Below are positions 4,781 through 15,011 of a stretch of DNA of 64,000 nucleotides, piece by piece. Every line of letters begins with the position of its first letter. Within the stretch, counting starts at the first letter, position 1. The stretch covers positions 21,826,001-21,890,000 of the forward strand of contig CM075987.1 in assembly GCA_038087875.1 (NCBI GenBank), written 5' to 3'. The DNA comes from Malacoraja senta (lineage: Eukaryota). Under the pieces are notes generated by a model. It saw only the letters and a list, made by a program, of their open reading frames with translations. It did not search any database and was not told the DNA's origin. The position numbers were made by a program, and so were the translations under genes.

Positions 4781-4950
4781 ACAAGTTGCTTTGATTTCCT
4801 TCCACCTCCCAGACATATTGGTAGATTAATTGGCCACTATGAATTAATCCTTTTACCTCTTATCTACACTAAGGAGTATCAGGGCACTTGGTGATTGTGC
4901 AATTAAATGCATAAATATAAATATGTCTTCAAAGTCACCACACTGCTTAC

Positions 4951-5054
4951 CTTATCATGAGGCTCCTGTACAGCTGCAAGAATCTGCACAGCAGGCAGAG
5001 AATTATTTTCCAAGTAATGATCGACTAATGAGTTCAGCATCAAGGGGCCACGTT
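4951..5054 (-). CDS. TSC1: TSC1 coding exon 2 (equivalent to human exon 4)
   Basis: Acceptor tctgcag| and donor AAG|gtaagc; 104 nt; (E)RGPLMLNSLVDHYLENNSLPAVQILAAVQEPHDK. Confidence 0.96.
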
Positions 5055-5749
5055 CTGCAGACATATCAACAAATAGTTGACACATACACGGAAATTTTAC
5101 CAGTTGAGCAAGAGTTCACTCAACTTTGCAAAATGGCATTTCAAAATACATTGGTTAAAGAGGATGACTCCATGATCCTTTGCATGAAATAATGTATCTA
5201 GTTCAATCACTCACTGAGCCTCGACTGGGAACAACGTGATCACCACACTACGATAGTTGCAGAGGTAAAACAAAATTAACCACAAGGAGAGCCAAGAGAA
5301 ATTGGGATTGGTGTTAGATGAATGTTTGAGGTAAATATCACTGAGGGTGCTGCAGGTTTGACAGGCTGTCCACTGACTAAAAAACAAACTGTTGGAGGAA
5401 CTCGGCAGGTCAAGTCACATTTATGGAGGGGGGGGGGGGAAGAAAATGTTAATGATTCAAGTCAAGACACTGCATTAGGAACGACACAGAGTCTCGACAC
5501 AAAACGCTAATAATTCCTACTGTCTGCACCCCCACAAAACAGATGCTGCTCAAAGCGCTGGTTCTTTTAGCAATTGTATTTTTGCTCCATCTGCAGTCTC
5601 ATATTATTTTTACTCACTTGTTAATGAATTAAGCAGTATTTAAGGAAATTGGCACGAAAAAGGGGTAGGTGCAGAGAATATTACATAAAACGGATTTTTA
5701 AAATCTGAAACGCAAAGGTTACAATGATCTATTTTCCATTTTACTTAAA

Positions 5750-6633: not shown

Positions 6634-6835
6634 CACTTCTCATAGTTGTAATCTCAGAAAAATATTGTGTAACAATGAGACTCCTAAACTAACCCGTGGT
6701 GATGCAAGCACTGCCAAAGTCTAAAAGATATTAACCAAAATATACTTTGTGATTTAAAAAAAAAAGTATATTTAAACAAAAAGAAAAACCCCAACAGGAC
6801 GAGCGTTTGAGAGACAAGTCCCAGCACAGCCTGAC

Positions 6836-6941
6836 CTGAGCGAAGGTGGTCCACAACAAGTCCTTTCACGTCCTCAAAGATTTCAAGATTTGTAGATTCC
6901 AACAGCAGAACCAGGTCACCAACATTCACCGGCTGCGTCAT
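6836..6941 (-). CDS. TSC1: TSC1 first coding exon (ATG at 6941; exon including 76 nt of UTR spans 6836-7017)
   Basis: MTQPVNVGDLVLLLESTNLEIFEDVKGLVVDHLRS resembles human MAQQANVGELLAMLDS; 106 coding nt, donor CAG|gtcagg, acceptor tcttgtattttag| at 7018. Phases of all four exons are compatible. Confidence 0.95.
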
Positions 6942-7689
6942 GCTGTGTGCGCTTCACGTGTATCGCCTCCTCGGTTCCACCCTCTGCAACGCTAAACTGC
7001 CGACTAGCAGGGCAGCACTAAAATACAAGAAGATGGTAACATAAGAAATAAGAGAAGGCTATTCAGCCCCAGATGCCATTCAATATCACAGCTGGTTTTT
7101 GACACCCGCATCACTTTCCTGCAGTTTGAAGAAGGGTCTTGACCCGAAACGTTACCTATCCATCTTCTCCAGAGATGCTGTCTCTGGGTCCACAGAATCA
7201 CTCCAGCACTTTGTGTCCTTTTGTCACTTTCCTGCACAAACTCCATGTCCCATGATTCCCATTGCATTTAAAATCCACTGGTTTCCAACTTAAATACACC
7301 CAGCAATCAAGTCTCCAGACGCTGCTCGAGTAGAAAATTCCAAAAATTCACATCCTCAAGCTATTCAGGAATTTTCAAAGGATCATTCTCATTCTTCTAA
7401 ACTCAAGCGAAAACAGTCCCTATCTGACTAATGTTTAGATAAACCTTTGTTTTCCTTCCTGTCTCACAGATATATCATTCTTTACAGAGGAAGGCACCTC
7501 TCCCGATCTGATCTCACCAGCACACTCTATAAGTAGATCAAGATGTCCCTATTCAAACTTCAATTCTCTCGTAATGAAAGTCAACATACCGATTACTTTT
7601 TAAATTGCTTTTTTATACCTGCCGCATCCTCAGGACCTGAGCGGATCAGCTGTCAGAGGTATTTATTGACATCTTTAACCTCTCACTAC

Positions 7690-13249: not shown

Positions 13250-14020
13250 TGCCTGCCACGGGTGCATCTGTAGACATTGCATTCATTCATGTCGCCCCAC
13301 ATACCAGGCACCCACGGAGCGGAAGGCCGCTGATCGGCAGCCCCCTGGACTGACGGAGGATCCACAGGACGCTTCTCTTCCCCCTATCTGTCCACTCGAC
13401 GGCTCCTGTCCCCACAATTGTGGGGGGGGGGGGGGGGGGGGGAGTCCTCTGCGCCCTCGCCCGCTCACTGCACCCAGCCGAGCCGAGCGGGTGCGGAAGG
13501 CAGGAGCATCCGAAGGCGGACTCCCCTCCCGTCCCGTCAGCCGGAGAGCGCAGGATTTTACCTCTCACAGACCCCGCATTCCACAGGGCGCCGCCATCTT
13601 GACCGCCGCACCCCCTCCAACCCGACCCGACCGCATCCGCCGCGAGTGATAAACAAATAAACCCGAACTACTTCTCCATCTACTCCTCACAAAGCAACAT
13701 GCTCCTTGCAAAGTCTCCCCTCAGCAAACTACAACTTGTCTTCTCCCACGAACAGAAATATATCTTCCTATAGATGTTTTCCAGAGAGATTTTGTCTTAA
13801 CAATGTAGGTAGATTGTTGTTTTAACGCCTCTTTTCCCCGATTCTGGTTTGCGGAGGGATACCACGCGGGGCGATGCGGTTGCGCGTGATTTAAGGGGGC
13901 CAGAGCGCGCCTGCGCAGACTGTCCGAAGGACCCCGCCGGCTCGGCATGACGTCACTCCATTCTGGTAAACAGGTTATTGCCGGGCAAAGGGGCGTGTCG
14001 GCAGAGCTGCCAATCACAAT
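13250..14020. promoter_or_regulatory. CpG island / TSC1 promoter
   Basis: CpG-rich unique sequence with NRF1-like GCGCCTGCGCA (13907-13917), CRE TGACGTCA (13948-13955), forkhead GTAAACA (13966-13972), GC box near 13990 and CCAAT (14010-14014). Confidence 0.85.
13562..13625 (-). other. TSC1: TSC1 non-coding exon 1 (5' boundary approximate) containing a YY1-type motif and a uORF
   Basis: Minus strand GTCAAGATGGCGGCGCCCTGTGGAATGCGGGGTCTGTGAGAG|gtaaaa inside a CpG island; resembles the recalled human TSC1 exon 1. Confidence 0.75.
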
Positions 14021-15011
14021 CTGAAGTGAAGCTTTTCATGATTGCAGCAAAAAGGTGTGGGGAAGACAAATAAATGTATGAGTTACATGGAGCGTTAATG
14101 ACTAACGCCCTTGGGAAAAACAGCACCACGGTTAATATTCATTTGCATTAGACATAAAAAGTGAATTATGAAATTTAAATGAAGATCCCCCCTTTGCTCC
14201 TCCACCTATTGTAATTGTGTTTGCCTTCTCAACTCATAGGGTCATAGAGTCTTACAGCGTGGAAATAGGCCCTTCGCCCAACTTGCCCACACCAGCCAAC
14301 ATGTCCCATCTACATTAGTCCCACCTGCCTGAATTTGCACCATATCCCACTAAACCATGTGCTAAATGTTTCTTAAACATTGCGATAATACCTGTCTCAA
14401 CCCCCTCCTCCAGTAGCTGATTCCTTACACCTACCACCCTTTACCCCTCCGGTTCCGATCAAATCTTTTCCCCCTCACCTTAAACCTATGTCCTCTGGTT
14501 CTAGATTCCCCTACTCTGGGCAAGAGGCTCTAGCCGATCAATTCCTCTCATTATATTTATATTTATGCATTGTCTGAGATGACTGGATACCATGTGAAAC
14601 AAAGCTATCACTATATCTCATGTGACAATAATAAACCTAACCTAAGATGCTGGGATTTTTACTAAAATGCAAAGAGAGTCAAGAATGTTTAATTGTCAAT
14701 TGTACTGAAACAGAACAATGAAATTCTTACTTGCAGCAGCACAACAGGTTTGTAAACACAGTACCCAATAAACAAATAAAAAGTTCAATTAAAAAAAATA
14801 TATAGTGCAAAACAAAACACAAGCCCAAATTCCCTCGTGTAACCAAGGCAGTTCATTGTTTGATGTTTGTAGTGTTCAATAGCCTGATAGTTATTGGGAA
14901 GAAGCTGTTCCTGAACCTGGAGGTCATGGTTTTGAGACTCTATTAATTTCTTGCCAATGACAGGTGTTATATACTTATAAAACAATATAATCAAAAAATG
15001 ATTATTGATGA

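Follow-up and report, generated by a model that had tools for sequence, protein, structure and literature searches.

Haploinsufficiency of TSC1 leads to tuberous sclerosis. One route explored to increase the hamartin output of the healthy allele is to lift the repression exerted by upstream open reading frames (uORFs), and the work in question (PMC12822670) describes for human TSC1 one ATG uORF in each of three 5′UTR exons, with lengths of 21–63 bp and all of them terminating upstream of the main ATG. Two of these three uORFs are reported there as present in several Ribo-seq sets, and the one in exon 1 is listed among the 'high-confidence' ATG uORFs. An unlabelled panel of Supplementary Figure 3 of the same article, which alone has an axis of ~200 nt, indicates 'ATG 4, ATG 5, ATG 1' over exons 1–3, and if this panel corresponds to TSC1, four studies called the exon-1 uORF. 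In the full-length human 5′UTR given in that article, the ATG of this first uORF (uORF1) is found at nt 12, which leaves a leader of 11 nt.

Functional data on the human uORFs were obtained with dual-luciferase assays in HeLa cells, in which ATG1 was mutated to ATC (PMC12822670). Loss of ATG1 by itself had no significant effect (+0.04, p 0.256), nor did its loss on the ATG3 mutant (+0.037, p 0.336), whereas gains were obtained on the ATG2 mutant (+0.187, p 7e-8) and on the ATG2+3 mutant (+0.353, p 6e-12), all p values being those of the Tukey table of the article. Recalculated from the 5.4-fold value of the triple ATG mutant, the effect of ATG1 loss amounts to ~1.28-fold alone, ~1.14-fold on the ATG3 mutant, ~1.78-fold on the ATG2 mutant and ~1.85-fold on the ATG2+3 mutant. 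The gains on the ATG2 and ATG2+3 backgrounds indicate that the human uORF1 AUG is used and repressive, and according to these tabulated values its effect is partly masked while uORF2 is present. In this regard, a translational role for the exon-1 uORF, which had been advanced for the fish locus described below, agrees with the contribution of human ATG1 to reporter repression in the data of that article. Two features of the assay bear on how it is to be read. The reporter UTRs were placed in an internal NheI site, so that the AUG is not cap-proximal and the reporter does not probe the TISU mechanism; moreover, the ATG-to-ATC change also removes the YY1 core.

TISU itself (consensus SAASATGGCGGC with an invariant ATG, as quoted in PMC5577775) was described as a YY1-type core promoter element that occurs in a single orientation at +5 to +30 from the transcription start (PMC2518114). 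Acting as RNA, the same element allows efficient cap-dependent and scanning-free initiation from very short leaders (PMC2518114, PMC3177215), and in the reported experiments on cap-proximal TISU mRNAs the 48S boundary was placed 15–17 nt past the AUG (PMC3177215). TISU mRNAs have also been reported as strongly dependent on eIF4E and independent of eIF4A. TISU is not the main start in 36% of the TISU genes, where the AUG of the element lies either in another frame or ahead of a stop codon, and the discoverers viewed such a non-main AUG as 'likely' a strong translation inhibitor (PMC2518114).

The locus analysed here lies in a window of 64 kb, which is the whole stretch of DNA under study and to which all coordinates refer. 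Four open reading frame pieces of its minus strand were scanned with Pfam, and three of them matched Hamartin (PF04388) above the curated cut-off, at 4903–5115 (E 7e-9), 1766–1978 (5e-24) and 353–523 (2.5e-23); the piece at 6684–6953 gave no Pfam match in the same scan. For the piece at 1766–1978, the best 13 of 28 hamartin protein matches were all chondrichthyan, with a skate protein at the top (96%). The Hamartin domain matches and the chondrichthyan proteins among the best hits identify the gene as TSC1 of a cartilaginous fish, the same assignment that the original prediction had made. Its first coding exon was delimited as follows:

6836..7017, minus strand: first coding exon of TSC1, with the acceptor ...tattttag/ before 7017 and the donor cag/gtcagg after 6836

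The main ATG of this exon is found at 6941–6939 (protein start MTQPVNVGDL...) and is preceded within the exon by a 76-nt leader devoid of any ATG. About 6.6 kb upstream of this exon, and on the same strand, lies a short uORF with the following features around it:

13565..13597, minus strand: TSC1 uORF1, from ATG to TGA, ten codons, peptide MAAPCGMRGL and stop, read from the sequence
13590..13601, minus strand: TISU/YY1 element CAAGATGGCGGC holding the uORF1 start codon, a 12/12 match to the consensus
13583..13601, minus strand: invariant 19-mer, −4 to +15 from the A of the ATG, identical in human and in a third lineage (L056, see below)
13556..13564, minus strand: donor-like GAG/GTAAAA directly after the uORF1 stop, a putative donor with its GT at 13561
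13634..13636, minus strand: upstream in-frame ATG in a weak context, giving a frame of 23 codons if used
13500..14100, no strand: CpG island that spans the putative promoter together with exon 1, CpG observed/expected 0.9–1.1

Read on the minus strand, the region is C AAG ATG GCG GCG CCC TGT GGA ATG CGG GGT CTG TGA GAG GTAAAA, with the start codon at 13597–13595, the stop codon TGA at 13567–13565, a GT 3 nt past the stop, and a start context with A in position −3 and G in position +4. This direct reading bore out the coordinates, the peptide and the context that had been proposed for the uORF. A scan of the window with the TISU consensus revealed the element around the ATG as the sole match, even when one mismatch was allowed, and in the orientation of the gene. 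The YY1 site noticed in the original prediction is therefore present, but it forms part of a full TISU with an initiation mode of its own, beyond a YY1 site combined with a Kozak context. In the outer flanks (beyond ~13200 and ~14000) the CpG observed/expected ratio falls to 0.0–0.45. By reference to the human orthologue, exon 1 would be spliced to the TSC1 coding exons, and we infer the transcription start, the splicing and the translation of the uORF in the fish.

Two related species, diverged by ~2% and available as DNA contigs (15 and 16 substitutions per ~820 nt), keep uORF1 unchanged. With ~0.7 changes expected in 33 nt and none seen, these two close relatives are uninformative on the constraint of uORF1 itself. 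Both of them carry, however, a 1-nt deletion at 13619, between the upstream ATG at 13636 and the TISU ATG, which indicates that the 23-codon extension is not kept in frame and that constraint starts near CAAG.

A comparison at much greater distance is provided by the human TSC1 5′UTR, which according to Supplementary Table 3 of PMC12822670 contains CAAG ATG GCG GCG CCC TGT AGG CTG GAG GGA CTG TGA, followed by GGTAAAC. The human exon-1 sequence given in the original prediction, with its ten codons, seven of ten identical residues and one synonymous Gly codon, proved to be exact when set against this table. Fish and human uORF1 are identical at 27/33 nt and 7/10 residues with no indel, they have the same length, frame and TGA stop, and 19 identical bases follow in a row from −4 to +15. 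Judged from the alignment, a gap-free match over 33 nt that includes 19 consecutive bases is beyond chance, whereas a bare ten-codon ORF is trivial, and the fish frame is orthologous to the human TSC1 exon-1 uORF. The neighbourhood of the stop behaves differently. Inserts of the human reporters with and without exon 2 (WT and Noexon2, as deposited with PMC12822670) indicate that human exon 1 extends ~30 nt beyond GGTAAAC until exon 2, which means that the matching GT is not the canonical human donor; the spacing from the uORF1 stop to GTAAA is also 2 nt shorter in human than in fish. Thus, of the proposal that the uORF ends 3 nt before a donor, the GT 3 nt past the fish stop stands, but the arrangement as a donor is not conserved, the human GGTAAA lying inside exon 1.

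A third lineage came from a scan of metagenome contigs with the 18-mer AAGATGGCGGCGCCCTGT, which gave 56 loci, mostly bacterial, among them one plausible orthologue, L056. This AT-rich and eukaryote-like contig reads TTC AAG ATG GCG GCG CCC TGT GGA GTG CAG CTA CTC TAA CAG/GTAAAC, a frame of ten codons (MAAPCGVQLL) with the stop TAA in place of TGA and with the same layout of stop, 3 nt and GTAAA as in the fish; as a result of the 18-mer search, 18 of the 19 block bases, including the first 15 nt of the frame, are identical here by ascertainment. Alignment of L056 with the flanks in the window is limited to the block of exon 1 (78% over 68 nt) and to a second, collinear block upstream of it:

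13874..13889, minus strand: conserved promoter block TCACGCGCAACCGCAT, ~280–290 nt before the uORF1 ATG, 15/16 identical and collinear with L056

This block, TCACGCG[A/C]AACCGCAT, precedes the two ATGs by ~283 and 292 nt, and in 300 shuffles a match of 15/16 at 40 nt or less from the diagonal was never obtained. On the strength of this collinear block, L056 is taken as the putative orthologous promoter and first exon of TSC1 from a distant animal. A less biased pattern (TISU, 19–30 nt, AGGTAAA) yielded 101 matches in prokaryote genomes, none of them TSC1-like, and the six matches of a scan of viral contigs were all unrelated.

The three lineages allow a view of what has been maintained in exon 1. 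All of them keep the 19-mer, the length of ten codons, termination at codon 11 (TGA, TGA and TAA) and a nearby GGTAAA, which in L056 is found in CAG/GTAAAC and in human within canonical exon 1. Codons 2–5 are identical throughout, third positions included, and this indicates a constraint at the nucleotide level. Leu10 is also shared (CTG in fish and human, CTC in L056), but residues 6–9 vary (GMRG in fish, GVQL in L056, RLEG in human). The fish and human frames differ by five non-synonymous changes and one synonymous, and between the fish and L056 frames the counts are again five and one, with a further change that preserves the stop, so that in neither comparison do synonymous changes exceed the non-synonymous ones, as would be the case for a conserved peptide. 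Such variability of residues 6–9 argues for a uORF acting in cis and against a micropeptide. In a simulation where codons 6–11 were mutated at the observed per-site divergence, the ten-codon frame was kept in 0.28–0.35 of the cases per lineage and in ~0.1 for both. With a passive retention of p ~0.1, the three sequences suggest, but do no more than suggest, selection on the uORF1 frame itself.

Altogether, we regard it as fairly probable that the fish uORF1, a TISU-started orthologue of human TSC1 uORF1, is a cis-acting frame that tunes hamartin synthesis and whose peptide has no function; uORF1 would thus most likely be an ancient brake on hamartin translation and not a working peptide. At the DNA level, the TISU/YY1 motif would help to place the transcription start from a few to ~30 nt upstream, whereas at the RNA level the same motif would make the cap-proximal AUG efficient with no need for scanning. 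Some ribosomes would then translate the ten codons and, after termination, return to scanning only in part, a reinitiation step that we infer, and the outcome would be that hamartin synthesis is lowered and tuned. The start element (−4 to +15), the small size of the frame and its stop would be under selection, but not the peptide. The end of the 19-mer at +15 would fall just short of the 48S boundary determined for cap-proximal TISU mRNAs.

The 19-mer is not exclusive to TSC1. Five exact copies occur in the 1.94-Gb genome, and 87 at two or fewer mismatches in comparison with three for a reversed control. Apart from the copy in TSC1, the other four exact ones are all 5′ ends of a LINE, so that within this genome we found no support for the idea that the bases from +9 to +15 stem from an extended YY1/TISU motif of general occurrence. 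Seven of the other loci were compared and found to be 94–99% alike from the motif on and unrelated upstream of it, a sharp boundary which reveals them as the 5′ ends of a young repeat. Its ORF1 begins with MAAPCTAAATPAP / MAAPCTAAATPAPDSD at the TISU ATG, ~4 nt from the first base of the element, and its ORF2 combines an endonuclease-like domain with one of reverse transcriptase (RVT_1, 54 bits), which identify the repeat as a LINE. This MAAPC LINE family is active in the genome. Among five ORF1 homologues, four start with MAAPC and the fifth matches an internal segment only. A candidate for the same LINE in the source of L056 (locus L014) has 72 nt following the motif. In human LINE-1, the 5′ end carries a YY1 site too, a likeness to the present LINE in having a YY1-type motif at the very 5′ end. 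ORF1 of human L1 begins far downstream of that site, whereas the motif ATG of the LINE described here doubles as the start of ORF1. The original prediction had held that a YY1 site explains the first third of the human match and nothing else, a view that does not hold now that the nucleotide-level block is seen to reach +15 and the same 19-mer to head a LINE family.

The meaning of this coincidence can be framed in several ways. TSC1 exon 1 (in three lineages) and the LINE share seven bases beyond the TISU consensus, for which the chance is ~6e-5 per family, and on these sequences a chance origin of the shared 19-mer seems unlikely. The link could reflect an optimum for near-leaderless initiation that both have in common, or else common descent, whichever its direction. 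It is unlikely, in our opinion, that exon 1 of TSC1 and its uORF arose from a LINE 5′ end, as a beheaded ORF1 start, or that the LINE captured the host start, even if the excess of the 19-mer over the control, its 5′ terminal position, the MAAPC starts, the reverse transcriptase in ORF2 and the seven extra bases would all fit such a history. The likeness of TSC1 exon 1 to the LINE stops at 19 nt, of which 12 belong to the TISU consensus, an optimum for cap-proximal initiation that both had reached would look alike, and a LINE 5′ end unchanged for >400 million years would be required. There is a small chance that a LINE promoter with a near-leaderless TISU start was captured before the divergence of jawed vertebrates, or else that the LINE borrowed the start of its host. 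If the capture is true, a LINE start would have acted from then on as the promoter of hamartin and as a brake on its translation. The LINE-origin hypothesis is compatible with the cis-acting brake that we favour.

Other readings of the locus need to be weighed against this brake. An unlikely one, although not negligible, sees in exon 1 nothing else than a DNA and RNA-processing element, made of a YY1 core-promoter site and a U1/donor-like GGTAAA, with ATG, frame and stop as by-products. The ATG does form the core of the YY1/TISU motif, in which it is invariant, and codons 1–5 are conserved at the nucleotide level in all third positions, but a cap-near AUG in such a context is expected to be used. 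The single ATG1 mutant of human was not significant in the reporter tables, as by-products would predict, yet in the same source uORF1 represses once the other uORFs are absent and counts as a high-confidence uORF. Likewise, the retention of GGTAAA in three of three lineages and the ~0.1 for passive retention of the frame fit this reading, whereas the stop is not covered by the donor consensus, L056 retained it through a change from TGA to TAA even though three of the nine surrounding bases changed, and the sole indel in the three lineages (2 nt, in human) falls just beyond the frame. As for the proposal of the original prediction that the frame encodes a micropeptide, extended here to a sequence-specific nascent peptide that stalls the ribosome, we consider it very improbable. 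The 7/10 residues shared by fish and human, together with Leu10 in the three lineages with one synonymous change, are what would speak for it. Five of those seven residues (MAAPC) lie inside the nucleotide-invariant block and are also found at the LINE 5′ end, and with the 19-mer at the head of a LINE family, MAAPC can be accounted for without invoking the peptide; residues 6–9 differ in each pair, mostly through non-synonymous changes and including Gly/Arg and Arg/Glu, with a ratio of five to one in codons 6–10 in both comparisons. Moreover, ten residues would scarcely clear the exit tunnel.

A stress switch of the GCN4/ATF4 type, where a reinitiation-permissive uORF1 would let ribosomes skip inhibitory uORFs downstream, seems to us improbable, and with similarly low expectation do we regard the related notion that hamartin output is set by the eIF2 ternary complex or by the factors of TISU use (eIF1, eIF1A, eIF4E/4E-BP). 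The reporter values of PMC12822670 show a smaller effect of ATG1 with uORF2 (1.28- and 1.14-fold) than without it (1.78- and 1.85-fold), as partial shielding predicts, and counting in the sequence of that article gives 35 nt between the stop of human uORF1 and the ATG of uORF2. The masking is therefore compatible with ribosomes that translate uORF1 and bypass uORF2, whereas the authors of the article interpret the same uORF effects as additive. The reported dependence of TISU mRNAs on eIF4E and not on eIF4A would also suit such a switch. The downstream partners are harder to find. The ATF4-like architecture of two uORFs anticipated in the original prediction does not fit human TSC1, where all three uORFs (21–63 bp) end without overlapping the main ORF. 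The ATG-free leader of the fish coding exon means that human uORF3 has no fish counterpart, and the 15-nt motif of human exon 2 gave no meaningful match in the window (2 against 2.46 expected, both outside the fish intron region), so that downstream uORFs are not visibly conserved. In the fish coding-exon leader one frame is open through the main ATG, and judging from this frame an upstream microexon could in principle yield an overlapping uORF.

The function of uORF1 is already known from the human reporters (PMC12822670), and hence is not new. Within the literature searched, the depth of its conservation, its identity as a TISU and its coincidence with a LINE appear to be new. In the accessible literature on TSC1 uORFs and TISU we found no paper on the conservation or the TISU nature of the exon-1 uORF, and no discussion of either subject was found in the available parts of PMC12822670. 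Neither for Chew et al. 2016 nor for a zebrafish 5′UTR MPRA preprint did the supplement files examined contain a TSC1 entry, and one paper on TSC diagnostics had nothing on the function of exon 1. The conservation of uORF1 between fish and human in start block, length and stop, with the other two human uORFs not found in fish, points to it as the ancestral and constrained TSC1 uORF. The brake proposed here would have consequences at several levels. A start codon embedded in a TISU makes native short-leader mRNAs the proper setting for testing it. The use of TISU depends on eIF1, eIF1A and eIF4E, which opens a possible route from translational status to the TSC complex. In the original prediction, a feedback on this complex had been put forward as a possibility for eIF2alpha or mTOR status. 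Variants in the 19-nt block would in turn affect transcription and translation together.

When set beside the systems described so far, the fish locus is closest to human TSC1 uORF1 (doi 10.64898/2025.12.07.692584), with which it shares the location in the first non-coding exon, the 19-nt start block, the ten codons, the TGA and the GGTAAA, although residues 6–8 differ and the human gene has two further uORFs not found in fish. The GCN4/ATF4 switches resemble TSC1 in having a very short 5′-most uORF, followed in human by more uORFs, and in a reporter epistasis compatible with partial shielding, but human TSC1 is without a uORF that overlaps the coding sequence and the downstream uORFs were not found in fish. 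With the TISU class, as defined in PMC2518114, the fish element has in common the 12/12 consensus, the strand of the gene, the CpG-island promoter and a non-main AUG that is followed by a stop. Most members of this class are housekeeping genes with the main ORF at the element, whereas here it starts a uORF of a growth-control gene. A further parallel is the TISU uORF in exon 1 of USP12/USPL, kept in the lncRNA JPX (Hezroni et al. 2017, PMC5577775), which is short, located ~20 nt from the transcription start and conserved in vertebrates, and whose AUG represses downstream translation and also adds to transcription. The USP12/USPL/JPX uORF typically runs across the main start in a different frame (PMC5577775), whereas the frame of TSC1 stops far before it.

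The features seen around uORF1, the ten-codon frame in putative exon 1 of TSC1, and in the first coding exon are as follows:

14232-14450: very high-copy repeat, with a summed contig depth of up to millions in all four sequencing runs
13874-13889, minus strand: promoter block TCACGCGCAACCGCAT, with 15 of 16 positions common to L056, a metagenome contig taken as a distant TSC1 promoter and exon 1 orthologue, where it lies equally far from the ATG
13556-13561: GGTAAA past the uORF1 stop, kept in fish, L056 and the human 5′UTR (PMC12822670)
13422-13442, minus strand: C run of about 21 nt, some 120 nt into putative intron 1, in the GC-rich part of the CpG island
6942-7017, minus strand: leader of the first coding exon, without ATG

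Many joints and loose ends of the run contigs fall at the repeat, which resembles a SINE of a type common in elasmobranch genomes. After the promoter block, ATCCCTCC and a CCAAT-like stretch were recognized by eye in both the window (~13845-13870, minus strand) and L056.

As for the conserved GGTAAA, the canonical human exon extends around 30 nt beyond it, and the motif could serve as an alternative donor or bind U1 close to the transcription start. A second donor-like motif, GTGAG, overlaps the uORF1 stop codon in fish and human. Further into putative intron 1, several small indels close to the C run are found in two related species (13476, 13497 and 13527). In the leader of the first coding exon (6942-7017, minus strand), one frame stays open through the main ATG and terminates about 25 nt inside the coding sequence, so that an upstream exon entering in that frame would create an overlapping uORF.

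The TISU-type start of uORF1 also opens a young LINE family of the skate genome, whose copies (L057-L064 and L172; e.g., G000:C4:37890594 onward in the same assembly) are 94-99% alike and begin exactly with (C/A)AAGATGGCGGCGCCCTGT. Their ORF1 (MAAPCTAAATPAPDSD...) is opened by the TISU ATG at about 4 nt from the first base of the element, and ORF2 comprises RVT_1 and an ALKBH8_N-type segment. Such a near-leaderless TISU start, if indeed used for ORF1 translation, may be of interest in its own right.

The 18-mer shared by these starts also occurs in five more AT-rich, eukaryote-like metagenome contigs (L001, L006, L014, L038 and L053), where the sequence after it is unrelated and where it opens a frame MAAPC... 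in each; L014 (MAAPCPAAAASAP) resembles the LINE ORF1 start in a comparison spanning just 72 nt. Among proteins, P0005, annotated as hypothetical in the teleost Coryphaenoides rupestris, matches the skate ORF1 at 86% over ~37 residues and also bears an unrelated Pfam domain, PF04437, so a chimeric gene model is probable. Were the similarity genuine, a teleost would harbour a close relative of this LINE.
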